Below, piece after piece: positions 2,422 through 59,936 of a stretch of DNA of 64,000 nt (its first letter is position 1; every line of letters begins with the position of its first letter). The translations under genes were made by a program, and so were the position numbers. The notes below the pieces were generated by a model. It did no database searches. It was not told the DNA's origin and was given only the letters and a program-made list of their open reading frames with translations. The DNA is from Candidatus Nanoarchaeia archaeon (GTDB taxonomy: Archaea; Nanobdellota; Nanobdellia; Woesearchaeales; JANQNE01), in NCBI GenBank assembly GCA_028279725.1, contig JANQNE010000011.1:25872-89871 (forward strand), read 5' to 3'.

Positions 2422-3240
2422 ATGAAATTCACGAAGATGAATGCTCTGGGAAACGATATTATAGTGATAAATGGGATAGAAGAGAAGATTGAGAAGGATT
2501 ATTCTGAGCTAGCTATAGACCTCTGCAGAAGAAAATATGGGATAGGTGGAGATGGGATAGTGATAATAGAGAAAAGCGATAAGGCTGATGTCAAGATGAG
2601 AGTGTTTAATCCTGATGGTTCTGAAGGAGGGATAAGCATCAATGGAGCCAGGTGTGCTGCAAAATATGCTTTTGATCATGGGATGGCCAATAAGAAAGGC
2701 ATGACTATAGAGGCACAGAAAAGAGTTATGAATGCAGCACTGGAAGATGAGATGGTAGTTGATGTTGGAGAGCCTATATTAGATAGGAAAGAGATACCTA
2801 TGCTTGGAGAAGGAGAGAAAGTTGTTAATGAGCAGCTAGTTTTAAGTGACAGGATAGTAAGGATCACTGCATTATCCCTGGATAACCCTCATTGCGTTAT
2901 ATTTGTAGATGATCTGGCTGAATATGCTTTTGAAGAAGAGGGAAAGATCATAGAGAATCATGAGAGTTTTCCAAAGAGGACAAATGTTGAATTTGTTCAA
3001 GTGAATAATGAAGATGAGATCACTATACGAGTCTGGGAAAGAGGAGTTGGAACAACATTGAGCTGCGGAACCGGAGCTTGTGCATCAGTTGTTGCTGGTG
3101 TTTTGAATGAAAAGACAAATAGGAATGTTACAGTCCACATGGCTGGTGGGAATGTTAAGGTTGAATGGGATGAAAAGACAAACCATATAAAGATCACTGG
3201 CTCAGTTGAATATAATTTTGAAGGAGAAGTGAAAAGATAA
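2422..3240 (+). CDS. dapF: diaminopimelate epimerase family protein (first catalytic Cys replaced by Ser)
   Basis: NALGNDIIVI, FNPDGSEGGISINGARC and GVGTTLSCGTGACA match DapF signature regions. The canonical DGSE...CGNGxRC reads SINGARC here. Confidence 0.75.
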   Translation: MKFTKMNALGNDIIVINGIEEKIEKDYSELAIDLCRRKYGIGGDGIVIIEKSDKADVKMRVFNPDGSEGGISINGARCAAKYAFDHGMANKKGMTIEAQKRVMNAALEDEMVVDVGEPILDRKEIPMLGEGEKVVNEQLVLSDRIVRITALSLDNPHCVIFVDDLAEYAFEEEGKIIENHESFPKRTNVEFVQVNNEDEITIRVWERGVGTTLSCGTGACASVVAGVLNEKTNRNVTVHMAGGNVKVEWDEKTNHIKITGSVEYNFEGEVKR

Positions 3241-4889
3241 TGGCAGAAGAAAATATCCATTGGGCAGACCAGATCGCTAAGGAAGTTAAGGAAAGGGTTG
3301 AGAAAGATCCTGTTCTTAAGAAGATTGTTGAAGAGAAGGGATTTATCGTATATGATGAGAAGACGCCATCTGGCACGATACATATAGGGTCTGGAAGAGG
3401 ATGGATAATACATGATGTTATCGCTAAGGCTATGAGAGATTTGGGGTTGAAAGCTAAGTTTATATTGAGTTCAGATGATATTGATCCTTATGACAAGCCG
3501 AACAAAGAACTGCCTAAGAGTTATGATAAATATCTAGGGATGCCTTTTAGGAATATTCCTTCACCTTTTGAAGGATATAAGAGCTTTGCAGACTATTATT
3601 TTATGCAGGTTGTTGAGAAGTTTGAAGAGATAGGCATAGAATGTGAGATACAGAGCACTGGTGAGCAGTATGAAAAGGGAACTTTTAATGCAGCGATAAA
3701 GAAAGTTTTGGATAATTCTGATACAATAAAGGAGATTTTTGAGGAAACTTATAGTAAAGAGTATAATAAGATCCCTTTTAATGTGATATGTGAGAAATGC
3801 GGAAAGATAGCAACTACAAAAGCGACAAAATGGGATAAAGAGAATGAGCTTTTGACATATAAGTGTGAGAAGAATCTTGTTGACTGGGCTGAAGGATGCG
3901 GTCATGAAGGACAGATAAGCCCTTATGATGGAAACGGGAAGCTTCCCTGGAAAGTTGAGTGGGCTGCTAAATGGCCTTCAGTCGGTGTTGTATGTGAGTT
4001 TGCCGGCAAAGATCATTTTACTGCTGGAGGTTCAAGAACTATTTCTATAGCAATAGCTGATCAGGTGTTAGATTTTCCACCACCTTATCCATCTACAAGA
4101 GAGGAGACAGGAAAAGGTTATGAGTTCTTTAATGTTGGCGGAAAGAAGATGAGCACTTCTAAAGGAAAGGGTTTTGGATTTGCTGAGATGTTCAATTATA
4201 TTCCTGCGCAGATTATTAGATATTTGTTGGTTAAGACTAGGCCGCATGCTGTGCTTGATTTTGATCCTGAAGGAAGAAATGATATGATACTTCTTTATGA
4301 AAGGTTTGATAGGGCAGAGAGGATGTATTTTGGAGAAGAGACTGATGATAACAAGAATGAAGTTGCAAACCAGAAGAGAATATATGAGTTAGCGCATGTT
4401 GGGGATATTCCTGACAGGATGCCTAAGCAGATACCATTTACTTTAGCTGCAACAGTTATACAAGTTGGATTAAGTGAGGAGAAAGCCATAGAGATATTGA
4501 AGAAAACAGGACATGTTGATGAAAATATTGAAGGGATGGATCTTCATTATGTACTGCAGAGATTAAGGGATGCAAAGAGATGGATAGAAAGGTTTGCTCC
4601 AGAGCAATATAAGTTTCAGGTGCAGGATAAATTAGCTGAAGGTATTGAGATTGATGATAAAGAGAAAGAAGTTCTTAAGAAGGTTATTGCTGAGCTTGAT
4701 AATGAGCTGGGTGAGGAAGAATTGCATAATAAATTCTGGGAATTATGCCAGGAAAATGATGTTAAACCAAAGGATTTTTTTAAAGCAGCGTATCAAGTGC
4801 TTATCAATAAAGATAGGGGACCAAAGTTAGCAGGTTTTATGCTTTCTATTGACAAAGATAAGGTTAAGAAACTTATTGAGAGTTTGTAA
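3240..4889 (+). CDS. lysS: lysyl-tRNA synthetase, class I (archaeal type)
   Basis: PSGTIHIGSGRG (HIGH-like) and KMSTSKG (KMSKS-like), 549 aa, class I LysRS layout. The start overlaps the dapF stop (TAATG). Confidence 0.9.
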   Translation: MAEENIHWADQIAKEVKERVEKDPVLKKIVEEKGFIVYDEKTPSGTIHIGSGRGWIIHDVIAKAMRDLGLKAKFILSSDDIDPYDKPNKELPKSYDKYLGMPFRNIPSPFEGYKSFADYYFMQVVEKFEEIGIECEIQSTGEQYEKGTFNAAIKKVLDNSDTIKEIFEETYSKEYNKIPFNVICEKCGKIATTKATKWDKENELLTYKCEKNLVDWAEGCGHEGQISPYDGNGKLPWKVEWAAKWPSVGVVCEFAGKDHFTAGGSRTISIAIADQVLDFPPPYPSTREETGKGYEFFNVGGKKMSTSKGKGFGFAEMFNYIPAQIIRYLLVKTRPHAVLDFDPEGRNDMILLYERFDRAERMYFGEETDDNKNEVANQKRIYELAHVGDIPDRMPKQIPFTLAATVIQVGLSEEKAIEILKKTGHVDENIEGMDLHYVLQRLRDAKRWIERFAPEQYKFQVQDKLAEGIEIDDKEKEVLKKVIAELDNELGEEELHNKFWELCQENDVKPKDFFKAAYQVLINKDRGPKLAGFMLSIDKDKVKKLIESL

Positions 4890-7747: not shown

Positions 7748-8314
7748 TTAAATCTTTTTGAGGCTTTTTAAAACCTCGGAAGGAGATTTTTCCTCGAATT
7801 CTTTTGAATATTCTTTATATTCATCTGTCTCTTTTAGGAATTGGTTTATGAGATGGAGTGCCTGTGCACTTGTATAGTTAAGACAGTTTAGGATGTGTTT
7901 CATGCAGTTCTTTTCTGTGAATTTGCAGTATTTATCTTCTGGCTCTATGAAGATCTTCAGTTCTCCGTCAATCCTTCTGAAACCAATAGGAAAGATCTTG
8001 CATATCAGTGGTCTGACTGGATAGACAATGCATTTTTTGTCTTCTAAGAAGATGCATTCTTTGTTTTCTTTGCTTTTTAGCTGGAGGACTTTTCCATTGT
8101 CACAGTATTCAAAATAAGAATGGTCGCGGTCTTCCATAACTTCTTTCTGCTCTTCTGGATCCTGGCATATCGGGCCATAGAAACAGAATTCTTCTATCTT
8201 TTTTCCAGTATGCTTTGATATCCTGTCTGCATCTCTTAGTGTAAGAAATGTCCCGTAATCTCCAATACAGCAATGTTCTTTGCATGTCTCACAAGGATGC
8301 TTATTCTGGCTCAA
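7748..8314 (-). CDS. YkgJ/UPF0153-type cysteine-cluster (Fe-S or Zn) protein
   Basis: CETCKEHCC (CxxCxxxCC) plus CIFLEDKKCIVYPVRPLICKIFP, the signature of the CxxCxxCC family. Overlaps the upstream gene by 14 nt. Confidence 0.7.
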   Translation of the reverse strand: MSQNKHPCETCKEHCCIGDYGTFLTLRDADRISKHTGKKIEEFCFYGPICQDPEEQKEVMEDRDHSYFEYCDNGKVLQLKSKENKECIFLEDKKCIVYPVRPLICKIFPIGFRRIDGELKIFIEPEDKYCKFTEKNCMKHILNCLNYTSAQALHLINQFLKETDEYKEYSKEFEEKSPSEVLKSLKKI

Positions 8315-9194
8315 AGTTGATCCACTCCCATTGTTTTGTCTCTTCTAAATTCCAAAGTTTCTTCCAGCCTGAATCACCCGACATAAAATCAATCTTTTTT
8401 GCTTTTAATTTTATTGCATTCTTTATATGTTCTGCTATAAGAAGCTTTCCTAAGTTCTTGATATCTGTGTTTGTTCCTCCGTCAAGGACATAGTAGACGT
8501 TATTGTAGAATATGGCTATTTCAGCAGCTTCTGTCTTGTTGCTGATCTTTATCGATAACATGTGAAGCATATCTTTTTCTTTTGCTGTTTCAACAAGTTT
8601 TTTCATGCTTTCTTCAAATCCATCCTGAAGATAGTTTGAATCTTCCCTAAATCTTTGTTTGTTAAGCTCTACAAGTGTCTTAAAGTCGTCTATGTTGTTC
8701 CATACTGTGCTGTAGTTCAGCTCTTCAAGATGCCTTAGGTCATATTTTATGTTTTTTCTGTGTTTTTTGCTGAAAGATGCAAAATAAGAGTCTATATCTG
8801 GAAAGTCCTCTATATTTAGTGAGAAGGATACATCGCATTCTTTTGGATCAGGAAAATATTCTTTCTCAGAATCATCTATGTATTCTATATTCATGTCTTC
8901 TGGGAATGAGTTAAGGAAATCTTTGATATGTTCTTTGTTTTTTATGAAGAATCTCCTTCTTTCAGGATAGTTTCCACCAAAGAATGCATGGAAATCATTA
9001 TCTCCTTCGTACTGTAATGGGAGCAGACCTATCTCTTTTCCTTCCTGGTAACCTACTACGAAAAAGAACTGATTAATCTTTGGATTGAAGAAGCAATGGT
9101 TGAACTCCCAAAGATCCCATAGTATCTCTTTTGGGCTGTATTTATCCCAAAGCTTCTTACAGTCTTCAAGTTTTGTGAAGGATTTAAATTCCAT
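8301..9194 (-). CDS. GNAT-fold acyl/aminoacyl-transferase, FemAB/CelD-like (Acetyltransf_6-like)
   Basis: C-terminal AEIAIFYNNVYYVLDGGTN...GKLLIAEHIKNAIKLKAKKIDFMSGDSGWKKLW resembles the CelD/BioF2-like GNAT pattern (xDFxxGxxxYKxxW). Overlaps its neighbours at both ends. Confidence 0.55.
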   Translation of the reverse strand: MEFKSFTKLEDCKKLWDKYSPKEILWDLWEFNHCFFNPKINQFFFVVGYQEGKEIGLLPLQYEGDNDFHAFFGGNYPERRRFFIKNKEHIKDFLNSFPEDMNIEYIDDSEKEYFPDPKECDVSFSLNIEDFPDIDSYFASFSKKHRKNIKYDLRHLEELNYSTVWNNIDDFKTLVELNKQRFREDSNYLQDGFEESMKKLVETAKEKDMLHMLSIKISNKTEAAEIAIFYNNVYYVLDGGTNTDIKNLGKLLIAEHIKNAIKLKAKKIDFMSGDSGWKKLWNLEETKQWEWINFEPE

Positions 9195-10107
9195 CCTTGT
9201 TTTTCCTCATTATCGAGAAAGTATATGTGTTGTATGTGCTTACTGGTTTAAATTTGTTCTTAAATTCAAGCAGGTCATCATCTGAACCGCCGAAATTGGC
9301 TTTATCGAAGCCCATCTTCTTTATCTCTATGAGGTCATATAGGTTTGTTATCTCTCCGAGTCCTTCAAATTTGTAGTTAAGCACACCTATGCCTGAATAA
9401 TATGTATTTGTGTTTGGAACTCTCCATCCTGCTGTTATCGAGCATGGAATTCCATCAACTATCAGTGTTTTTGCCATGTCACAGCCTGCGAAATCTGAAT
9501 CAACCATCCTAAAATAGCATTCTTTATAGGCAAAATCTTCTGCTCCTCTTTTATCTATCCAGTCTGTGATGATTTTCTTTAGTTCTTCTTTTGGAAGATC
9601 CAATGAATCTATTAGTTCAACTTTATGTTCTTCAAGGAATCTGTTCTTTATATTTCTTATCTTCTTCCATTTCTTTCCTTCAAGCTTATCTCCATCCCAT
9701 GTTTTCATATCATACATCGGCCATTCAAGCCTAAAGTTAAGCTGTCCTGATCTGAAGTCTGTGTTTTCAAGTTTTTCTTTCAGTTCTTTCCTGAATTTCT
9801 TGTCAACTTCTATCTGAAGCCTGTTAGCTTCGTCTTTGTTGAAAACATGATCTACAAACTTCATGAATGTTTCAAATTTCTCTTCTTTTGGAGCAAGGAC
9901 TTCAGATATCATATACCAAAGCTTGCCTGTCTTTGATTTTTGTGCAAGAACACCTTTGCTGTTATCAAAGCCTACAAATATAGGCATCTTTGCGCTTGTT
10001 GTCTGGTTCATATAGTGATGATAGTTATGTTCAGCATCATGGCCATGTATTTCAACAGCTTTTATTGCTTTTTCTTCAAATTCTTTCTTATCTGTCAATA
10101 CTTCCAA
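9184..10107 (-). CDS. standalone DUF2156 protein (MprF C-terminal aminoacyl-transferase-like), paralog 2
   Basis: GKKWKKIRNIKNRF, ITAGWRVPNTNTYYSGIG, GLGE and FGGSDDDLLEFKNKFKP match the LPG-synthase C-terminal pattern (xxFKxKFxP). No membrane domain. Confidence 0.55.
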   Translation of the reverse strand: MEVLTDKKEFEEKAIKAVEIHGHDAEHNYHHYMNQTTSAKMPIFVGFDNSKGVLAQKSKTGKLWYMISEVLAPKEEKFETFMKFVDHVFNKDEANRLQIEVDKKFRKELKEKLENTDFRSGQLNFRLEWPMYDMKTWDGDKLEGKKWKKIRNIKNRFLEEHKVELIDSLDLPKEELKKIITDWIDKRGAEDFAYKECYFRMVDSDFAGCDMAKTLIVDGIPCSITAGWRVPNTNTYYSGIGVLNYKFEGLGEITNLYDLIEIKKMGFDKANFGGSDDDLLEFKNKFKPVSTYNTYTFSIMRKNKDGI

Positions 10108-10119
10108 ACAAAAACACCC

Positions 10120-11034
10120 CTATTTCTTTGAGATTTTGAAAAAATAATACTTTTCCATACTATGTGGATTAAATTTCAGCTTGAAATTTAATAAGTTTTT
10201 CTTTTCAGAGCCTCCAAAATCGACAAAATCATATTTTTTTTCTTTTAACTGCTTTAGATCATCCACGTAAGCAACTTCTCCAAGTCCTTTGTGTTTGTAA
10301 TTGTGGATTCCTATGGATGAATAGTATGTGTTTGTATTGGGAATTCTCCATCCTGCTGTTATTGCACATGGTTCATCATTAACATAGATTATTCTTGTCA
10401 TATCACATCCTTTGAAGTCGTTCTCTACAAAGTTGAGGAATGTAGGGGCCCATGCTTTTGCTACAGTGCTTTTTCTTGTCTTTTCCCAGTCTTCGATTAC
10501 TTTTTTTATCAGTTCTTTGTCTTCTTTTTTGTATTCTTTTATCTCTATTCTGTTTTCATTGAAGAATGTGTTTTTGATGTTTCTTATCTTCTTCCAGTCT
10601 TTTCCTGGCAAAGAAGAGTCAAAATCATTCATATTGAATACTGGAGAGTCAAAGATCCTTGAAGGTTTATGGATGTTGTACTTTTCCTGGCTGATCTTGT
10701 TAAGAAATTTTCTTCTGAACTCTTTTTCTAATGTTAGGAATATCTTGTCTGATGATCTTAATGAATGTTCTATGAAGTTCAGCAGAAGGTCTAATTGTTT
10801 TTCTTTTGGAGCTAAAACATCTGAGATGATCTCATATTCATTATCATCTTCATAGTAAAGGGCGAAGACTCCATATTTTTCTTCAAAGATGAAGAAAGTC
10901 GGTATAACTCCTTCTTCTTTCATGTTATAATAATACCAGAAATTGTGTTCAGACATATTACCATAGCTGGAGATAAGCTGTTCAATAAGTTCCTTGCTTT
11001 CTAATATATTATTTATGACCCTCACGTTGATCAA
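10120..11034 (-). CDS. standalone DUF2156 protein (MprF C-terminal aminoacyl-transferase-like), paralog 1
   Basis: Shares VLAPKE, DWKKIRNIKN, GCDM, ITAGWRIPNTNTYYSSIG, GLGE and FGGS...FKLKFNP with the adjacent paralog. Confidence 0.55.
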   Translation of the reverse strand: MINVRVINNILESKELIEQLISSYGNMSEHNFWYYYNMKEEGVIPTFFIFEEKYGVFALYYEDDNEYEIISDVLAPKEKQLDLLLNFIEHSLRSSDKIFLTLEKEFRRKFLNKISQEKYNIHKPSRIFDSPVFNMNDFDSSLPGKDWKKIRNIKNTFFNENRIEIKEYKKEDKELIKKVIEDWEKTRKSTVAKAWAPTFLNFVENDFKGCDMTRIIYVNDEPCAITAGWRIPNTNTYYSSIGIHNYKHKGLGEVAYVDDLKQLKEKKYDFVDFGGSEKKNLLNFKLKFNPHSMEKYYFFKISKK

Positions 11035-11070
11035 GAAGAAGTTGTTATATTTAAATTATTAGATTCTCAA

Positions 11071-11163
11071 TGTATAACACGCTACGTTCTATTCTGGAAT
11101 GGATCTGTTTCAGATTCTAGTATTTTTATAACTCTGTCCGAGAACTTCGCTTGGTGTTATGCA
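11071..11163. ncRNA. conserved ~95-nt hairpin element, copy A (candidate structured RNA)
   Basis: Homologous to 48762-48857 and 59004-59098. 10-bp closing helix TGTATAACAC:GTGTTATGCA, inner helix GTTCT:AGAAC, conserved blocks GCTACGT, TTTCAGATTCTAGT and GAGAACTTCGCTTG. Confidence 0.6.
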
Positions 11164-11171
11164 CTTTAGGA

Positions 11172-12215
11172 TTAAGAATAACTGGTTTCTTCAGCTTTCT
11201 GCTGAGCTTCTATCAAAGGACCAAGTTTTTCTCTTAGGTTATGTCTTTCTATTGCACAATCAAGGATCTTCTGTATCATCTCATGATATTCTAATCCTAT
11301 TGACTGGGCTGCCATCGGTGTTGAGCAATCACAAGAGATTCCTGGATTTGGATTCATCTCTAAAACATAAGGGATGTTGTTTTCGCTTAATCTTATGTCA
11401 ACTCTTCCGTAATCCCTTACATCTAATAACCTGTATAGTTCTGCTGCAACTCTTTTGATCTTTGATTCTACATATTTAGGGATATCATCTGGCTGCCTGT
11501 AGTCTGCATTCTTGTATAATTCACTTTTTTCATCCCATTTAGCTTCATAAGAGAAGATTCTCATAGGGTCTGGAGTTAAGTTCTTGAAAGAAACTTCCAT
11601 AATTGGCAAGCTTATGAGGTTGCTTCCATTTCCAAGGACTCCAACATCAAGATCTCTTCCTCTGATATATTCTTCAACCAATGCAGGCTGATTGTATACT
11701 CTGTTTATGAATCCAACTCTTGACTGCAGCTCTTTTTCATTTCTTACTATTGCATCTGAGCTGATACCTATGCTGTTGTCCATCCTTGATGGCTTTACTA
11801 TCAAAGGAAAATGCAGATCAGGATCAAGTTTCTTGTTTCTTGAGTAAAATATCTGCCATTTTGGTGTTGGAATGCCATGATGCATCATTATCTCTTTTAC
11901 CCTAGCCTTATTCATACAAAGAGCCAGGCTTAAAGGACCAGAACCAGTATATGGTATATCTAACAGTTCAAGCATAGCTGCAACATGAGGCTCATGGAAC
12001 GAGTTTCCGTTGAATCTTTCGCAAACATTGAAAGCTATGTCAACATTTGCTCTTGACAGCTTACCAAATGTCTGTTCATTGACATCAAAGAACTCAACAT
12101 CATGGTTATTCTTCTTCAATGCTTCATGAACAAGGTTTCCAACCTTGAAAAGATCATTCTCAACTTCCTTATTTGAATATTCTTTAAAGATGTTAGAAAG
12201 AACAGCTACTTTCAT
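11172..12215 (-). CDS. D-alanine--D-alanine ligase family ATP-grasp enzyme
   Basis: N-terminal Rossmann-like MKVAVLSN, HEPHVAAMLELLDIPYTGSGPLSLALCMNKARVKEIM, FPLIVKPSRMDNSIGIS, EEYIRGRDLDVGVLGN, GRVDIRL...YVLEMNPNPG. Ddl-type ATP-grasp order. Confidence 0.7.
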   Translation of the reverse strand: MKVAVLSNIFKEYSNKEVENDLFKVGNLVHEALKKNNHDVEFFDVNEQTFGKLSRANVDIAFNVCERFNGNSFHEPHVAAMLELLDIPYTGSGPLSLALCMNKARVKEIMMHHGIPTPKWQIFYSRNKKLDPDLHFPLIVKPSRMDNSIGISSDAIVRNEKELQSRVGFINRVYNQPALVEEYIRGRDLDVGVLGNGSNLISLPIMEVSFKNLTPDPMRIFSYEAKWDEKSELYKNADYRQPDDIPKYVESKIKRVAAELYRLLDVRDYGRVDIRLSENNIPYVLEMNPNPGISCDCSTPMAAQSIGLEYHEMIQKILDCAIERHNLREKLGPLIEAQQKAEETSYS

Positions 12216-12428
12216 TTAGCACTGCACCCCTGTAGAAAACAACAACACACCATCTTTTTTTTGTTTTAGGTAAAAAAACATTCGGTTTATCACCAGTTTT
12301 TTATTTTTTTTATTTGTTAATGCAATTATATACTTTTTTATTTATAAATGTTATGTTTTTTGTTATTTTTTTAGAAATTTTTCTATAAAAAAGTTTTTTT
12401 AGTCTTATTCTTTTGTTTTTTATTTTGT

Positions 12429-12441
12429 TTTTTATCGTCGA
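12429..12441. promoter_or_regulatory. TTTTTATCGTCGA motif, copy 1
   Basis: One of two identical 13-mers; they are the only G/C islands in the T-rich tract. Confidence 0.3.
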
Positions 12442-12566
12442 GAAAATAACTTTTTTATGTTTTTGCTTTATTTTTTTACTTAATCTTGTTTTTTTGTTAG
12501 TTTTTGTAAAAAATTGCAAAAAAAGAAATTTTTAGTTTACTTTTTTTGGTAAAAATTTTTGTTTTA

Positions 12567-12581
12567 TTTTTATCGTCGATA
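12567..12581. promoter_or_regulatory. TTTTTATCGTCGA motif, copy 2 (perfect palindrome TATCG-T-CGATA)
   Basis: Identical 13-mer, 138 bp from copy 1. TATCGTCGATA (12571-12581) has 5-bp inverted arms. Confidence 0.3.
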
Positions 12582-12866
12582 AAAAGTTTAGGAATTTTTT
12601 AGAAAAAATTTATTTTTTTAATTTTTGTTTAATTTTTTAGATTTTGTGATTATTTTTTCATCTTTTATTTTCTTTTTATTTTTTTCAAAGAATAGTTTGA
12701 TTTTACTTATTGGATGTTGTTTTTTTGTTTGATTTCTGATGATTAGAAAACATTGGGTTTTCTAGCGTTTATTTGCTAAACTTTCAGAAAAAATTATACA
12801 TTATCAGAAAAGTTTATAAAGAGATTTAGGATATATTTCGCTATAAAACCAAAAAGGGGTATTACT

Positions 12867-13211
12867 ATGGCTGCAAAACAAAAAATAATAGGGCTTACTG
12901 AAAAAGTACTGGTCTATGGCCAGAATAAAAAGAAAAATGTTGTCGCTAGGATAGATACTGGAGCGACAAAGTCTTCTATCGATGTAAAATTAGCTGCTGA
13001 GCTGCAGTTAGGTCCTATATACAGGACTAAATTAGTCAAGTCTACCCATGGTAATACATTAAGGCCTGTTGTTGAGATGAACATAAGACTTTCTGGGGTG
13101 GAATTAAGGTCAGATTTTACGATAGCTGACAGAACTGATATGAAATATCAGATATTGGTCGGCCAGAATATATTGAAAGAGGGAAATTTTTTGGTTAATC
13201 CTAAAAAATGA
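12867..13211 (+). CDS. retropepsin-like aspartic protease domain protein (RimK-associated, DUF785/Zn_protease-like)
   Basis: ARIDTGATKSSID (D-T-G-A active-site signature). 114 aa. Overlaps the rimK-like start by 4 nt. Confidence 0.6.
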   Translation: MAAKQKIIGLTEKVLVYGQNKKKNVVARIDTGATKSSIDVKLAAELQLGPIYRTKLVKSTHGNTLRPVVEMNIRLSGVELRSDFTIADRTDMKYQILVGQNILKEGNFLVNPKK

Positions 13212-14311
13212 AAGCTGCATTAATCAGTCTAGGAAGCAAGAGCTCTCAATTTACAGCTGAAGCTATGAAGAATTACTTTGATGAAGTTGATGATCTTGAT
13301 ATAAAGAATATAGAAGTTAATTTTGGTGTTAAGGAGCTTGAACTATTATATAATGGAGAGCCTTTGAAGGATTATGACTGTGTCTATGCAAAAGGATCTT
13401 TCAGATATTCACCTTTGCTTGCGTCAATAACATCTGTATTGGCTAAGAAAGATATATATCTGCCGATAAGCGCAGATTCTTTTACTATAAGCCATGATAA
13501 GCTGCTTACACAGATAGAGCTTCAGAAGAACAAGATACCTATGCCTAAAACATATCTTTCTTCTACACCTGAAGCTGCAAGGGAGCTGTTAGAGAAGGTC
13601 AATTATCCTATAATCATGAAGTTTCCGCAGGGAACACAAGGGAAAGGGGTGATGGTCGCTGATTCTTTTGCTTCAGCATCTTCAATGCTTGATGCTTTGT
13701 CAGCTTTGAGACAGCCTTTTTTGATACAGGAATATATAGAGACAGGCGGAATCGATATAAGAGCGATAGTTGTGGGAAAGAAAGTTGTTGCAGCGATGAA
13801 AAGAAAGGCAGAAGGGGAAGAGAAGAGAGCAAATATACATGCAGGCGGTAAAGCAGAGCCTTGCCAGCTGGATGCTCACACTAAAAAGATCGCTATAGAT
13901 ACTGCAAAGGCAGTTGGTGCAGAGATATGCGGTGTTGATATATTAGAAAGTGCTAAGGGTCCTGTTGTCATTGAGGTGAATATATCTCCTGGGCTGCAGG
14001 GAATAATGGCTGCAACTAAGGTTAATGTTGCTGACAAGATAGCAAAATATCTTTATGAAGTTTCCAAGAAGAGATCTGAAGGGGATAAAAAAGAGTCAGC
14101 ATCAAAGATACTGAGCGATCTTGGTGTTGAAGAGGCAACAAAGACATCAAAAGATATAATGACGACCCTTGATTTCAGAGGAAAGAGGGTGTTGCTGCCT
14201 GAAGTTGTAACCAATCTTACTAAGTTTGATGATACGCAGGATGTTGTGATAAGTGCTGACAAAGGAAAGCTTGAGATAAAGAAGCTTATCATCGGCGCTA
14301 AGAAGAAATAA
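13208..14311 (+). CDS. rimK: RimK-family alpha-L-glutamate ligase (ATP-grasp) with a C-terminal extension of roughly 80 aa
   Basis: YPIIMKFPQGTQGKGVMV, FLIQEYIETGGIDIRAIVVG, RANIHAGG and CGVDILES..GPVVIEVNISPG follow the RimK/LysX pattern. Confidence 0.75.
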   Translation: MKAALISLGSKSSQFTAEAMKNYFDEVDDLDIKNIEVNFGVKELELLYNGEPLKDYDCVYAKGSFRYSPLLASITSVLAKKDIYLPISADSFTISHDKLLTQIELQKNKIPMPKTYLSSTPEAARELLEKVNYPIIMKFPQGTQGKGVMVADSFASASSMLDALSALRQPFLIQEYIETGGIDIRAIVVGKKVVAAMKRKAEGEEKRANIHAGGKAEPCQLDAHTKKIAIDTAKAVGAEICGVDILESAKGPVVIEVNISPGLQGIMAATKVNVADKIAKYLYEVSKKRSEGDKKESASKILSDLGVEEATKTSKDIMTTLDFRGKRVLLPEVVTNLTKFDDTQDVVISADKGKLEIKKLIIGAKKK

Positions 14312-14342
14312 CTTTTTAAATAGAGAGTTCTTGTTTTGTCCT

Positions 14343-16424
14343 ATGTGTGGGATTATAGGGATATTTAACCATAAGGATGCTAAGAAGCTAGCTAAGAAGG
14401 GGCTGTCTAAGATATTATACAGGGGAAAGGACAGTAATGGCCTCTTTAGTTCTGAGAATTGCTGTATCGGACATTGCCTGCATTCTGTAGTTAATTTTGT
14501 TGAACAGCCTTTCAAAGGAAAAGGTGTGCTGATCGTAAATTGCGAGCTGTATAATTGGGAAGAGCTTAACGATAAATATAAGTTTAAGGCAAGGAATGAT
14601 TCTGAATTACTTTTTATGTTGTTGGAGAAGAAAGGAGTTTCAAAGATCAAAGAGATATTAGATGAGCTGGATGGTGTTTATTCTTTCTGCTATTGGATTG
14701 ATGATAAAGTTTATGTTGCGAGAGATATAATCGGTGTAAAGCCATTATGGTTCTCTAAGTATGAGCATCTTGGTTTTGCTTCTGAGAAAAAGGCATTGAA
14801 AGAGATAGGAATGTTTGATGCTGAGGAACTAAATCCCAGGAAGATATTAGTTTATGATGTGAAGAAGAATAAGGTTGAATTTATCGAGAGGGATTTTTTA
14901 AAGATAACACCTGAATTGAAGTGTAAATATGAAAAGATAAAGAAAGAGCTGACTGGGCTTGTTGTTAATTCTATCTCTAAAAGGATACCTGATCAGAAGT
15001 TTGGGATATTGTTTTCCGGAGGGATTGACTCTGGTCTGATCGCACATGCATGTAAAGAATTAGGTGTTGATTTTACATGCTATACTGCTGCTTTGAAAGA
15101 AAAAGGGATGGGAGAAGCAGAAGATATGGTCTATGCTAAGAAAGTTGCTGATAAATTAGGATTCAGGCTAAAGACAAAGACAATTTCTCTTAAAGAAACT
15201 GAAAAGTATCTGAAAAAAGTAGTTCCTTTGATAGAAGATTCCAATGTTGTTAAAGTTGGAGTGGGATTGACTTTCTATGTTGCATGTGAGATGGCTAAGA
15301 AAGATGGGATCAAAGTTATATTTTCCGGACTTGGATCTGAGGAGCTGTTTGCCGGCTATGAAAGGCATAGGAAAAGTGATCTGATAAACAAAGAATGCCT
15401 TTCTGGAGTCATTAAGATATATGAAAGGGATCTTTATAGGGATGATGTTATTGCGATGGCAAACAATCTTGAGCTTAGGCTTCCTTTTCTGGATAAGAAG
15501 CTTACTAGTTATGCACTGAAGATTCCTGCTAAATACAAGATAAAAGATGGGTTGACTAAAGTTGTTCTCCGTGATGTTGCTGTTGGTCTTGGTTATGATA
15601 AAGAATTTGCATCTAGAAGGAAGAAAGCTGCGCAGTATGGAAGCAAGTTTGACAGAGCGATAGCTAAACTTGCTAAGAGAAAAGGATTTAACCTTAAATC
15701 AGAATATTTGAGGACCTTTTATCCGGAAGTTAATCTTAAGCTAGGTGTGTTGTTCAGTTCTGGGAAAGACAGCTGCTATGCGATGCATGTTATGAAAAGA
15801 CAGAATTATGAGATAAGCTGCCTGATAACATTAAAGAGCAAAAATAAAGATTCTTATATGTTTCATACGCCTGCTATCGAGCTTGCTGAAGTGCAGGCGA
15901 AGGCGATGGAATTACCTATAATAGAACAGGAGACTGCAGGTGTTAAGGAAAAAGAGCTTGCTGATCTGAAGAAGGCATTAGCTGCTGCAAAGAAAGAGCA
16001 TAAGATAGAAGGTGTTGTGACCGGAGCATTATTTTCTAAATATCAGCGTGAAAGGATAGAGAAGGTTGCTGATAGTCTTGGGTTAAAGATATTTTCTCCT
16101 TTGTGGCATATGGATCAGGAGACTGAGCTTAAAAGTTTGGTGAGAGAAGGATTTGATGTTATTATCAGCTCTATAGCTGGTTATGGCATGGAAACAAAAG
16201 ATATAGGAAAGAGGATTGATGATAAGATGATCTCGAAATTGAGAAGGTTAAAAGATAAGATCGGGTTTAATGTAGCTGGAGAAGGCGGAGAGTTTGAGAG
16301 CTTTGTCCTTGATGGGCCTATGTTTAAGAAGAGATTGGAGATTGTTGATAGCCAGAGAGCTATAGAGAATGAATGTACTGGCAGGATGCTGATCAAGAAG
16401 ATTAAATTAGTCGACAAGAAATAG
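14343..16424 (+). CDS. fusion protein: glutamine-hydrolysing asparagine synthase-like (N) + diphthine-ammonia ligase Dph6/MJ0570-like PP-loop domain (C)
   Basis: Start set at MCGIIG (Ntn Cys2), with TATA ctttttaaata about 25 nt upstream. AsnB PP-loop ILFSGGIDSG. C-terminal LGVLFSSGKDSCYAM and VAGEGGEFESFVLDGPMF are Dph6 signatures. Confidence 0.75.
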   Translation: MCGIIGIFNHKDAKKLAKKGLSKILYRGKDSNGLFSSENCCIGHCLHSVVNFVEQPFKGKGVLIVNCELYNWEELNDKYKFKARNDSELLFMLLEKKGVSKIKEILDELDGVYSFCYWIDDKVYVARDIIGVKPLWFSKYEHLGFASEKKALKEIGMFDAEELNPRKILVYDVKKNKVEFIERDFLKITPELKCKYEKIKKELTGLVVNSISKRIPDQKFGILFSGGIDSGLIAHACKELGVDFTCYTAALKEKGMGEAEDMVYAKKVADKLGFRLKTKTISLKETEKYLKKVVPLIEDSNVVKVGVGLTFYVACEMAKKDGIKVIFSGLGSEELFAGYERHRKSDLINKECLSGVIKIYERDLYRDDVIAMANNLELRLPFLDKKLTSYALKIPAKYKIKDGLTKVVLRDVAVGLGYDKEFASRRKKAAQYGSKFDRAIAKLAKRKGFNLKSEYLRTFYPEVNLKLGVLFSSGKDSCYAMHVMKRQNYEISCLITLKSKNKDSYMFHTPAIELAEVQAKAMELPIIEQETAGVKEKELADLKKALAAAKKEHKIEGVVTGALFSKYQRERIEKVADSLGLKIFSPLWHMDQETELKSLVREGFDVIISSIAGYGMETKDIGKRIDDKMISKLRRLKDKIGFNVAGEGGEFESFVLDGPMFKKRLEIVDSQRAIENECTGRMLIKKIKLVDKK

Positions 16425-55917: not shown

Positions 55918-56928
55918 ATGGAAAAACGAAAAAGAGGAAGGAAAGACAAAAAGCTAGTTCTGTTCAGGAAGTTGAAAAAGATAGAGAGTGAGGTATTTAA
56001 TGACGGGTTTACATACCTGGTAAGCTTATTGAGATATCCAAATCACAGGAGTTTCCAGTACGGGACTTTAGAGCATATATACAAGAAAAGGAATGAGGGT
56101 TCTTTCAAGAATTTCTTTTTTGATAAGAAGTTGTATCAGCTTGTTAAGAAGGAGATTGAAATTCTTTATCCAAAATATAAAAGGATAAGGATAATCATAA
56201 CAAGGTATGGTATAATGGTGTGTGATAATTATAGGCCTAATAACTTTAATGTGTTGCTTCTGACTATCCATGCCGGAAGGTGGGCTCCTGAGAATATCGA
56301 AAAGAAGATGAGATTGACCAGGACAGGAAGGTTTAGGGAGGAAGATATCGACTCTGACAGGATATATTCTAATATTGTTCTTGAGAGAGGAGGTATATGG
56401 ATCAACTCTAAACTTTCAAGATATGTCTGTGACCTTAACAGGCCACAGAACAGGTGCATATATTTCAAGAAAGATGAGAAATGGATAGATAACGATATCT
56501 GGGATGATGATCTTACAAATAAAGAGATAACACAGATAAACAGGTGGCATCAGGATTTTTATGTTACACTACATAAAGTGTTGGAGACGTATAAGTTCAA
56601 TATAATATTTGACGGGCATACTATGAAAGACAGGCCTGGAAGACCAACGATAAGTTTTGGTACAAAGCATATATCTCCATTCTATATGCCTGTTGTGAGA
56701 GCGATGAAAAACAGGCTTAAGAAAGTGGGGTATAAAGATACTTTTTTCAACAGGCCTTATGGCGGTGGTTTCATTTTGAAATGGCTGAAGACCAAATTCC
56801 AGGATAAGTTTATATTCTCTATGGAGATAAACAAGAAAGAATATATGAATAAAGACAGGACTAAGACAAAGAAGGATAAGGTTGAAAGGTTAAGCCATGA
56901 GATAACACAGATATTTGATATAAAATGA
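55918..56928 (+). CDS. N-formylglutamate amidohydrolase (FGase) family protein
   Basis: LLLTIHAGRWAP, YVCDLNRPQN and NIIFDGHTM correspond to the HAG / DxNR / DxH(S/T) metal-site blocks of the FGase family. Confidence 0.55.
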   Translation: MEKRKRGRKDKKLVLFRKLKKIESEVFNDGFTYLVSLLRYPNHRSFQYGTLEHIYKKRNEGSFKNFFFDKKLYQLVKKEIEILYPKYKRIRIIITRYGIMVCDNYRPNNFNVLLLTIHAGRWAPENIEKKMRLTRTGRFREEDIDSDRIYSNIVLERGGIWINSKLSRYVCDLNRPQNRCIYFKKDEKWIDNDIWDDDLTNKEITQINRWHQDFYVTLHKVLETYKFNIIFDGHTMKDRPGRPTISFGTKHISPFYMPVVRAMKNRLKKVGYKDTFFNRPYGGGFILKWLKTKFQDKFIFSMEINKKEYMNKDRTKTKKDKVERLSHEITQIFDIK

Positions 56929-58325
56929 AGATAATAAACACGACAAAGAAGCAGAGCAATAAAAGGCCTTTGAAAAAGGCAAAGACCGGGCTGGAAGTAG
57001 AGATGTTTGTCATAGATAAAAAAGGAGATATGACACAGAAAGGATATTCTCTTGTGAAAAATGTCAAGAAAATAGAGGGAGAAGTTGAGATTGTAAAAGA
57101 AGTCGGAATGAATATGATCGAGTTCGGGTGTTATCCTAGTGTTAATACATACAACCCCGCGTTGGAACTGATCGAGTCTATAGAGAAGACAATAAAGATT
57201 GCAAAGAAAGATGGATTATTGCTATATCCTTTTGGAACTTATCCTGGAACCTCTGAATCAAAGCTTACTCCAGACACAAGAGGGCACTATAAGATCAAGA
57301 AGAAGATATTTGGAGATAAGAAATTTCCATTAGCAACAAAAGCGATAGGATTTCATCATCACTATGCTCTTCCTAAAGGGGTGTTTAATTACGAGAAGAA
57401 GGAATTAAAATTATTGATTGACAGTAAGTTGAAGAGAAGTTTGTTGAATTGCTATAATTTTGAGATCGCTATAGATCCTATATTGACGTTATTGACGCAA
57501 TCATCTCCATTTTTTGAAGGAGAACAGCTTGCTAAGGATTCGAGGATGCTGATATATAGGGGAGGAAAGAAACTAAAGTATAAGAAAGGGCTGTATCATA
57601 AGTTCCAGATATTAGGTGGGCTTCCTCCATATAAGCAGACTGAGACTGACCTGATAAGAAGTATCAAGAGGAGACAGCAGAAATGGAAGAGGCTTATAAG
57701 AAAGGCTGACAAGACTGTGAAGTTCAGGAAGATGTATCCGTTCAAGATGGATATAGGATGGAATCCTATAAAGATCAACAAGCATGGAACTTTGGAGGAA
57801 AGAGGGATGGACATGAACTACATGTCTATACTTCTTGGAGTCTCTGCTTTGATCAAGTTCTGTCTTAAGAAGATACAGAGAGATTTTATCGAGGTCATAC
57901 CTTCTGATATCGGGATAAAGGAGCCTTTCAAGATAAGGAAAGGTGTGATGTTTATCCCGCCGCATACACATATCAGGGAAAACTTACAGAAAGCCAGCGC
58001 TTATGAAGGATTTGATAATGATGAGCTTTACGAATATACAAAAGCATTCTATAAGCTTGCAAAGAGCTTGTCAAGAAAGATCTATTATCCTTTGTTTGAA
58101 AGGATCGAAGGGATGATAGAGAAAAGAAAGTCTGTCTCTGATGAGATCATCGATTATGCTAAGAGGAAGAAATTAATCAATGGTGATGGAAAGATATCAA
58201 ACAAGAATGCAAAAGTTCTTGCATTGTATCTGTCTAAGAAGTTTGAGAGGGACCTTAAGGAGACAAAGAAGATAGTAAAGGAGATAATGACGAAGCATAA
58301 AAGACAGATCAAGACTAAAAGATGA
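56925..58325 (+). CDS. carboxylate-amine ligase, glutamate-cysteine ligase family 2 (GCS2/YbdK-like)
   Basis: TGLEVEMFVIDKKGD, GFHHHYALP, ERGMD. Overlaps both neighbours by 4 nt. Confidence 0.6.
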   Translation: MKIINTTKKQSNKRPLKKAKTGLEVEMFVIDKKGDMTQKGYSLVKNVKKIEGEVEIVKEVGMNMIEFGCYPSVNTYNPALELIESIEKTIKIAKKDGLLLYPFGTYPGTSESKLTPDTRGHYKIKKKIFGDKKFPLATKAIGFHHHYALPKGVFNYEKKELKLLIDSKLKRSLLNCYNFEIAIDPILTLLTQSSPFFEGEQLAKDSRMLIYRGGKKLKYKKGLYHKFQILGGLPPYKQTETDLIRSIKRRQQKWKRLIRKADKTVKFRKMYPFKMDIGWNPIKINKHGTLEERGMDMNYMSILLGVSALIKFCLKKIQRDFIEVIPSDIGIKEPFKIRKGVMFIPPHTHIRENLQKASAYEGFDNDELYEYTKAFYKLAKSLSRKIYYPLFERIEGMIEKRKSVSDEIIDYAKRKKLINGDGKISNKNAKVLALYLSKKFERDLKETKKIVKEIMTKHKRQIKTKR

Positions 58326-59834: not shown

Positions 59835-59936
59835 GGGCCTATAGTCTAATGGATAGAACAACCGGCTTCGGTAAGTGGGGTCAAAAGCTTCGCTTGTGGG
59901 TACCGGTTAGTGGGGGTTCGAATCCTCCTAGGCCCA
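59835..59936 (+). tRNA. tRNA-Arg (anticodon TCG) with a 30-nt intron at the canonical 37/38 position; no encoded CCA
   Basis: Acceptor GGGCCTA:TAGGCCC (7 bp), anticodon stem ACCGG:CCGGT, loop C-T-TCG-G-[intron 59872-59901]-A, T arm GGGGG-TTCGAAT-CCTCC, discriminator A. The mature length is 72 nt. The D stem has one mismatch. Confidence 0.8.

Follow-up and report, generated by a model that had tools for sequence, protein, structure and literature searches.

The window analysed here, a stretch of 64,000 nt from a Candidatus Nanoarchaeia archaeon (GenBank assembly GCA_028279725.1, contig JANQNE010000011.1, positions 25,872 to 89,871 of the forward strand), carries an operon encoding a ligase of the Ddl family, two stand-alone DUF2156 proteins, a GNAT protein and a cysteine-rich protein, a combination for which an earlier note had suggested tRNA-dependent assembly of a short peptide. 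The operon consists of five co-directional open reading frames (ORFs) on the minus strand, running from 12215 to 7748, which overlap or nearly abut just as the earlier note had described; in gene order they are separated by a gap of 137 nt and a gap of 12 nt, followed by overlaps of 11 nt and 14 nt. The five genes are:

11172-12215, minus strand: Ddl-family ATP-grasp ligase, predicted to be of the carboxylate-amine type, 347 aa (PF07478 Dala_Dala_lig_C, E 1e-33)
10120-11034, minus strand: DUF2156 paralog A (DUF2156-A), 304 aa from a TTG start, 301 aa in the database form (PF09924, 40.3 bits)
9184-10107, minus strand: DUF2156 paralog B (DUF2156-B), 307 aa (PF09924, 22.6 bits, below the gathering score)
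8301-9194, minus strand: FemX-like tandem GNAT of PF13480 (Acetyltransf_6), 297 aa (56.9 bits)
7748-8314, minus strand: predicted metal-binding CxxCxxCC protein (PF03692), 188 aa, last gene of the conserved unit (25.5 bits)

The gathering scores are 27.5 bits for PF09924 (LPG_synthase_C/DUF2156) and 23 bits for PF03692. The domain calls made before (Ddl-like, two DUF2156, GNAT and Cys-cluster) hold in profile and fold searches; paralog B, the one that falls below its gathering score, shares 37% identity with paralog A (E 2e-66), keeps every motif of the family and comes out as the top match of 42 DUF2156 genes in related loci, most of which contain a gene of its type. No membrane segment is predicted in any of the five proteins (maximum hydropathy over 19 residues ≤1.16 overall, 0.93 and 1.05 for the DUF2156 paralogs), and all five are predicted to be soluble. 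The archaeal context that had been assumed for the operon is borne out by the named homologues, which nearly all come from metagenome-assembled genomes (MAGs) of Candidatus Woesearchaeota or Nanoarchaeota, and by two archaeal signs in the window, namely a class I lysyl-tRNA synthetase (LysRS) and an apparently intron-containing tRNA.

Conservation of the gene set in archaea and bacteria

The conservation of the module was followed from two of its families. A scan for DUF2156 relatives with one genome per species gave 44 loci (the species-level loci), nearly all from Woesearchaeota or Nanoarchaeota and a few from bacteria of the Candidate Phyla Radiation (CPR); several binchicken MAGs of this set carry the label 'uncultured Methanosarcinales'. 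For three of the CPR loci (L046, L047 and L049) a bacterial origin is backed by SecA and by an adjacent gene that we take, by eye, to encode a ribosome hibernation factor. A second scan, of metagenomes and anchored on the ligase, gave 69 loci, 44 of which have enough downstream sequence to be informative. A DUF2156 gene starts within 1.6 kb downstream of the ligase and on the same strand in 39 of these 44, 10 of these ligase-anchored loci have a CxxCxxCC gene placed between the two or immediately behind them, and the ligase-DUF2156 pairing also occurs in all three distinct contexts that were reached via ligase homologues. The synteny of the module is far beyond chance, the coupling of ligase and DUF2156 is near-universal, and conservation of the module extends over DPANN archaea of the Woesearchaeota type and some CPR bacteria.

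The complete set is found in locus L058, whose ligase is 77% identical to that of the window and in which the ligase is followed by two DUF2156 genes, the PF13480 gene and the CxxCxxCC gene, in the same five-gene order. In L058 the CxxCxxCC gene is followed by a convergent gene, so that the conserved unit is taken to end at 7748. The downstream ORF of 91 aa (p91) and the phosphoglycerate dehydrogenase gene of the window were considered as further members of the operon and rejected, since they are not conserved and L058 has its convergent gene at that place. The earlier note had made its idea depend on the DUF2156 and GNAT assignments and on the genes staying together in relatives; the assignments stand in profile searches, and the genes do stay together.

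On some metagenome contigs (L109, 8001-11372; L115; L124) the place of the ligase-DUF2156 pair is taken by two or three copies of the Ddl-like ligase, arranged as tandem paralogs.

Predicted functions of the operon proteins

Enzymes that transfer amino acids from aminoacyl-tRNA are recognized by a double GNAT fold, whose two domains enclose the substrate cleft, and by a positively charged helix in GNAT domain 2, which holds the tRNA's acceptor stem (PMC6103681), as well as by a catalytic lysine that follows an aromatic residue, such as K305 of FemX or F328-K329 of DhpH (PMC12945691). AlphaFold (AF2) models built from family alignments are of high predicted local distance difference test score (pLDDT 94.7 for DUF2156-A and 95.6 for the PF13480 protein), and both modelled proteins are tandem GNATs, with a Foldseek probability of 1.00 to FemX, MprF and Sbb17/Sba18. 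For DUF2156-A the top structural match is 2HQY (template modelling score 0.72-0.79), followed by the synthase domains of MprF (4V34-36, 5VRV, 7DUW, 9J8S), Sbb17/Sba18, which are peptide synthases dependent on aminoacyl-tRNA, and FemX, and for the PF13480 protein the top matches are FemX (6SNR, 1XF8) and Sbb17/Sba18. According to the family alignment and the secondary structure of the model, helix 145-160 of DUF2156-A bears the invariant residues K148, R151, N152 and N155, and helix 143-157 of the PF13480 protein bears K144, H145, K147 and N148, of which K144, H145 and N148 are invariant; judged from alignments and models, the charged helix thus appears to be present in both proteins. Invariant F284-K285 in DUF2156 and W277-K278 in PF13480 lie at a distance from the C-terminus equivalent to that of the catalytic lysine, a correspondence that is positional only. 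As the PF13480 'GNAT' also has a Fem-type tandem GNAT fold in its model, the operon is predicted to hold three, not two, aminoacyl-tRNA-dependent transferases.

These relationships lie at the level of the fold. Sequence searches of the PDB with the DUF2156 protein, with the DUF2156 family profile and with the PF13480 protein gave no meaningful match, and an exact look-up of the 301-aa form of DUF2156-A returned no record. The A/B subfamily of DUF2156 is very small: at E ≤0.001 it counts 269 representatives out of 1.84 billion. Fusions are rare: of two such proteins (P0413, 573 aa; P0295, 488 aa) one carries an N-terminal TrmB-type helix-turn-helix and the other a C-terminal PF00583 acetyltransferase, and the fusion survey found none of DUF2156 to the ligase or to polyamine enzymes. 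In locus L055 a classical PF00583 acetyltransferase gene adjoins the module.

Three known groups of enzymes invite comparison. MprF and other aminoacyl-phosphatidylglycerol synthases, together with the stand-alone Bacteroides protein 2HQY, have the Pfam family PF09924 and the fold in common with the DUF2156 proteins of the operon; however, the latter lack the membrane/flippase domain and show no sequence-level match to solved MprF, and because of the missing membrane domain they are not MprF. FemX, the best fold match of the PF13480 protein, belongs with FemA and FemB to enzymes whose chemistry would resemble the one proposed below, but these are of PF02388 and not PF13480, and the operon differs from their setting in its archaeal host and in a context without peptidoglycan precursor genes. 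The third group is formed by the enzymes of the streptothricin type (Orf11, Sba18, Sbb17) with VlmA, PacB and DhpH-C, which like the operon enzymes are soluble tandem GNATs with a charged domain-2 helix; their C-terminal aromatic-Lys pair has a positional counterpart in the operon proteins. The acceptor of the Orf11/Sba18/Sbb17 class is a small amine or hydroxylamine, and Sba18 and Sbb17 are among the top folds for both modelled proteins, at an identity of about 8-15% in the fold alignments. The class consists of single enzymes from antibiotic clusters of actinomycetes, whereas up to three paralogs and an ATP-grasp enzyme are predicted from sequence in the tiny genomes of DPANN and CPR, where DUF2156 lies, in relatives, next to primary polyamine metabolism.

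With Ddl and VanA the ligase has in common an ATP-grasp fold of PF07478 and the residues for ATP, Mg and catalysis; its best match among solved Ddl structures has an E-value of 4e-28 in a PDB sequence search, and alignment A3 puts its identity to E. coli DdlB at 29%. In an alignment of 22 members of its subfamily with DdlB, the residues K144, K215, R255, D257, E270 and N272, which serve ATP and Mg binding and catalysis in DdlB, are invariant throughout. Five further residues of DdlB (E15, S150, Y216, S281 and L282) we take, from established structural work on that enzyme, to form the D-Ala1/D-Ala2 pocket, and here the ligase differs: the GGxSxE15 motif is gone and the E15 position variable, S150 is replaced by N and Y216 by W, and around S281/L282 the loop varies and carries insertions. 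The ligase also scores below every NCBIfam cut-off for Ddl and Van enzymes, the best being 187.2 bits against 243 (NF002378) and all other models falling far short of theirs. The ligation of D-amino acids, which the earlier note had read from the Ddl resemblance, is therefore not supported: because both pocket and scores fail, the ligase is not a functional Ddl. Its identity within the subfamily is 50-80% across Woesearchaeota and other DPANN, and on its sequence it belongs to a distinct DPANN/CPR subfamily of the Ddl family, predicted to be an active carboxylate-amine ligase with a pair of substrates that would differ from those of Ddl and yet be conserved. A literature search on D-alanine ligase in Woesearchaeota found nothing relevant.

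The archaeal pseudomurein ATP-grasp model NF053643 is not among the best 25 of 40 NCBIfam matches for the ligase, and the neighbouring RimK matches it weakly (33.8 bits against a cut-off of 500). No Mur ligase family occurs in the Pfam-annotated gene tables of 12 neighbourhoods, nor among the window ORFs scanned against Pfam, a scan that was not exhaustive, and the annotated neighbourhoods hold no MraY and no glycosyltransferases. The module has no detectable relation to pseudomurein synthesis, and the absence of mur linkage is a further difference from Ddl and VanA.

The CxxCxxCC protein has an N-terminal CxxCxxxCC motif and further conserved cysteines. Eight cysteines (C8, C11, C15, C16, C87, C95, C105 and C130) are invariant in 12 homologues from related loci, which would fit a metal-binding protein with two sites, and in relatives its gene is placed between or after the ligase and DUF2156 genes. 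The PF03692/YkgJ family includes the flagellin lysine methylase FliB; orthology to FliB is unsupported, since an NCBIfam scan that included the FliB model gave nothing at E 0.01 or better. A PDB sequence search with the protein yielded no meaningful match, and the literature on PF03692/YkgJ no functional lead.

Polyamine genes in relatives and the possible product

The genes next to the module in relatives were clustered, their families confirmed by Pfam, and polyamine enzymes sought by tblastn with reference proteins. A polyamine gene lies within 3 kb of DUF2156 in 35 of the 44 species-level loci; by type, an agmatinase-family gene is found at this distance in 29 loci, a SpeD-like decarboxylase (PF02675) in 27 and a deoxyhypusine synthase (DHS) homologue in 11. 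The enzymes are of several non-homologous types and comprise an arginine decarboxylase (PF02675 or PdaD), agmatinase, a DHS/SpeY homologue, carboxyspermidine dehydrogenase and decarboxylase, and homospermidine-synthase-like, ornithine decarboxylase (ODC)-like and spermidine synthase enzymes. Polyamine and DUF2156 genes frequently alternate and overlap, and typical gene orders include:

SpeD-like > DUF2156 > agmatinase > DUF2156 (> PF13480); stop codons overlap the start codons that follow
DHS-like > SpeD-like > agmatinase > DUF2156 > DUF2156
L044: Lit > SpeD-like > ligase > agmatinase > DUF2156 > PF13480
L020: ligase > CxxCxxCC > DUF2156 > PdaD > DHS-like > agmatinase
L014: SpeD-like > SET > carboxyspermidine dehydrogenase > decarboxylase > DHS-like > DUF2156
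L046-L049 and L102 (CPR): PdaD > MetK > agmatinase > ligase > DUF2156 > SecA > homospermidine-synthase-like > ODC-like
L027 (CPR): SpeD > spermidine synthase > SpeD > DUF2156 > M29 peptidase > CxxCxxCC > PurD-like ATP-grasp

All loci counted, the ligase itself directly adjoins polyamine genes in about 14 of them, in at least five gene orders, and in L027 the PurD-like ATP-grasp enzyme occupies the place of the Ddl-like ligase. A SpeD homologue of Woesearchaeota, encoded in a cluster with speB and speY, has been shown biochemically to be an arginine decarboxylase (Li et al., 2023, PMC10407285), and the speDA-speB-speY clusters of DPANN and CPR described there are the clusters that harbour the DUF2156 genes of relatives. 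Given this biochemistry, the polyamine neighbours of DUF2156 are genuine genes of the route from arginine via agmatine and putrescine to (homo)spermidine. The same paper mentions no ATP-grasp genes in the DPANN polyamine clusters, a mention of DUF2156 not having been searched for. The coupling to polyamine genes is strong for the A/B subfamily of DUF2156 and recurrent, though not universal, for the ligase.

In about ten related marine Woesearchaeota loci, and in L001 (6724-7458), a homologue of the Lit family (PF07314) is encoded directly upstream of the arginine decarboxylase gene; Lit is a family of bacterial lipoprotein intramolecular transacylases, unexpected in an archaeon.

The operon probably encodes a conserved soluble amide-bond kit made up of aminoacyl-tRNA transferases and an ATP-grasp ligase. 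In this general form the short-peptide kit of the earlier note survives as the best family-level reading, with a third, Fem-type enzyme added, while a reading with D-amino acids or murein is not supported. More specifically, and tentatively, we suggest that the product is an aminoacylated or peptidyl polyamine rather than a cell-wall peptide, made in tRNA-dependent and ATP-dependent steps, which on the strength of sequences and models we would give a little less than an even chance. The acceptor would most likely be a polyamine or a precursor of one (agmatine, putrescine, homospermidine or spermidine), because the genes of relatives are embedded in polyamine biosynthesis clusters, and this amine would be supplied by the polyamine pathway, encoded elsewhere in the genome if at all. 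DUF2156-A, DUF2156-B and the PF13480 protein would transfer aminoacyl groups from charged tRNA to the acceptor amine, or to the alpha-amine of a residue added before. The ATP-grasp ligase, of Ddl descent and with its rebuilt pocket, would activate a carboxylate as an acyl-phosphate and join it to an amine of the same molecule, and the eight-Cys metal-binding protein may have an accessory role. As a proposal, this soluble pathway is presumed to be cytoplasmic.

What the analysis shows are the domain families, folds, conserved catalytic motifs, solubility, gene-order conservation and polyamine context; that aminoacyl-tRNA is used, how the steps follow each other, which amino acids take part and that a polyamine is the acceptor are inferred. 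An acceptor that is a small amine is supported by the fact that the closest solved structures include Sbb17/Sba18 (bound to streptothrisamine), which acylate small-molecule amines from aminoacyl-tRNA. Consistent with the mechanism, the part of the Ddl pocket that has been lost is the part that binds the carboxylate of the second substrate. Polyamine N-acetyltransferases belong to PF00583, so that both the PF00583 fusion and the acetyltransferase neighbour in L055 are consistent with a polyamine, and enzymes of the PurD family join glycine to an amine, so that the PurD-like stand-in of L027 is consistent with an amine acceptor. Glutathionylspermidine and trypanothione synthetases and gamma-glutamylpolyamine synthetase are known to link a carboxylate to a polyamine amine through an amide bond in an ATP-dependent way; by analogy the proposed type of bond would be alike, although these ligase families are non-homologous to the operon ligase. 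The neighbouring synthetases were considered as pointers to the tRNA donor and set aside, since LysRS and isoleucyl-tRNA synthetase (IleRS) are single-copy housekeeping genes and the evidence was judged too weak. Class I LysRS lies about 3 kb from the operon and in AR3-type loci (L052, 9158-10879; L076/L078, 10161-11759) directly follows the ligase-DUF2156 pair in convergent orientation, and IleRS is present in 14 of the 44 species-level loci; Lys-tRNA as donor is a weak hint, too sparse to be used.

Several observations weigh against a polyamine product. Nine polyamine enzyme queries found no match in the 64-kb window, the closest relatives (L007-L009 and L058) have no adjacent polyamine genes, and such genes occur in only 5 of the 44 informative ligase-anchored metagenome loci. 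Shared ancestry of related marine genomes makes up part of the 35 polyamine-linked loci, and a literature search found no tie of these families to polyamines, an earlier in-silico mention being possible. Shared ancestry alone is nevertheless insufficient, because the link turns up with non-homologous enzymes that serve the same steps, takes several gene orders and spans two domains of life. Lastly, the strong conservation of the ligase (50-80% identity) would equally suit a conserved macromolecular substrate, as would be expected if the enzymes added amino acids to a protein.

Such a protein might by analogy be part of the translation apparatus (aIF5A with its (deoxy)hypusine, a residue derived from polyamine, or ribosomal proteins), modified in the manner of the L/F- and R-transferases of the N-end rule, RimK or TTL, and the DHS homologue within 3 kb in 11 of the 44 loci, weak PF04377 ATE_C matches in some family members and the retropepsin-like and RimK genes that are divergent neighbours both in the window and in L112 could all be read in this way. 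We consider this unlikely, as the RimK pair is missing from most loci, the nearest folds are transferases for small molecules or lipids rather than ATE/Aat, and clustering of the neighbourhoods shows no conserved gene for a candidate target protein; the DHS homologue of such clusters has moreover been interpreted as the homospermidine synthase SpeY (PMC10407285). No better chance is given to a free small peptide or amino-acid conjugate, for instance an osmolyte or a signalling di- to tetrapeptide, with the proximity to polyamine genes reflecting co-regulation or the shared precursors arginine and lysine. That the window's own clade (the window, L058 and L007-L009) has the module without adjacent polyamine genes, as do most ligase-anchored loci, would suit such a product, and pairs of ATP-grasp and GNAT enzymes do make compounds such as N-acetylglutaminylglutamine amide. 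Co-regulation alone fails, however, to account for DUF2156 genes that sit interleaved, and translationally overlapping, between the genes for arginine decarboxylase and agmatinase, or for a link that returns with non-homologous polyamine enzymes and in bacteria as well as archaea.

Two further readings place the product in the envelope. Stand-alone synthase domains could, by analogy with MprF, ErdS and alanyl-diacylglycerol synthase, aminoacylate a membrane lipid or glycan, as the MprF synthase domain defines the family, structures of MprF rank among the best fold matches, and the Lit-family membrane protein gene lies upstream in about ten marine loci. This Lit neighbour is limited to one closely related clade, though, the neighbourhoods contain no conserved gene of lipid or glycan biosynthesis, and the five operon proteins have neither membrane segment nor flippase domain, for which reason the lipid acceptor entertained by the earlier note is disfavoured and this reading appears quite improbable. 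A murein- or pseudomurein-like peptide, in which the ligase would make a dipeptide of the D-Ala-D-Ala type and the diaminopimelate (DAP) epimerase DapF would supply the diamino acid, is very hard to sustain, even though the ligase is in the Ddl family, Fem-type enzymes build peptidoglycan bridges and DapF is encoded 4.5 kb off. All D-Ala pocket residues of DdlB are changed in the ligase, its scores stay under the Ddl cut-offs with the pseudomurein model outside the best 25 of 40 matches, Mur ligases, MraY and glycosyltransferases are missing from the annotated neighbourhoods, and DapF stands beside the module in none of 50 searched loci. The nearby DapF-like epimerase to which the earlier note had drawn attention is present, but its link to the operon is not conserved, and it was rejected as a part of the system.

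Outside the ribosome, charged tRNA is known to donate amino acids to the cell walls of bacteria, to lipids of bacteria and fungi, to proteins tagged under the N-end rule and to a handful of antibiotics. To our knowledge archaea offer essentially no described case, unexplored MprF homologues of methanogens aside. If the aminoacylated or peptidyl polyamine proposed here is correct, it would mean new polyamine conjugates and a function for a small family of unannotated proteins, provide soluble enzymes for making aminoacyl-amines, and account for the annotation of 'D-alanine-D-alanine ligase' in archaea that have no wall. The module spans two groups of ultra-small, host-dependent microbes and is repeatedly woven into the genes of polyamine synthesis, leading to the broader and rather doubtful speculation that DPANN and CPR might share an undescribed branch of primary metabolism, in which polyamines or agmatine are aminoacylated from tRNA and then extended or capped by a re-tooled Ddl-type ligase, yielding a new class of peptidyl-polyamines; no tRNA-dependent, non-ribosomal aminoacylation pathway would have been proposed for DPANN archaea before it.

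Other features of the window

Beyond the operon, the window contains the following features:

2422-3240, plus strand: DAP epimerase (DapF), 4.5 kb from the end of the operon
12216-12866: AT-rich divergent intergenic region upstream of the operon, 651 nt
12867-14311, plus strand: retropepsin-like aspartic peptidase (PF05618; weak NCBIfam RimB/RloA) and RimK-family glutamate ligase, overlapping by 4 nt, divergent from the operon
14331-16424, plus strand: 697-aa fusion of a glutamine amidotransferase/asparagine synthase module with a diphthamide-synthase-like domain (PF01902)
16540-37227: near-complete de novo purine and folate-linked cluster
55918-58325, plus strand: N-formylglutamate-amidohydrolase-family gene (PF05013) and weak GCS2-type carboxylate-amine ligase gene (PF04107, 22.3 bits), overlapping
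59835-59936, plus strand: tRNA, 102 nt, apparently intron-containing (Rfam, 51.6 bits; missed by ARAGORN)

DapF and class I LysRS (together 2422-4889, plus strand) share one base at 3240. The retropepsin-like/RimK pair, which on its domains looks like a module of the RimB-RimK type in an archaeon, recurs upstream of the ligase in L112 and lies 6 kb off in L043, and the 697-aa fusion has a 76%-identical orthologue in L058, divergent beside the operon. The purine cluster comprises IMPDH, a long PurA (576 aa), GuaA, PurM, a PurC-PurE fusion, PurN, FolD, a split PurH, 5-formyltetrahydrofolate (5-FTHF) cyclo-ligase, a PurF-PurD fusion (889 aa), PurQ, PurL and PurB; DPANN genomes are usually described as being without nucleotide synthesis. 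The PF05013/PF04107 pair would, from its domain matches, be a second and unrelated amide-ligase pair in the window.

A scan for promoters and terminators with bacterial-type models, which are uninformative for an archaeon, gave signals at or below the shuffle expectation. The divergent intergenic region contains a duplicated unit of about 135 nt, within which sit the two copies of a near-palindrome, TTTTATCG-T-CGA(T/G)AAAA, at 12429-12446 and 12568-12584, 138 nt apart. The core motif of the near-palindrome has three matches in the window against 0.11 expected, and the near-palindrome could be an operator.

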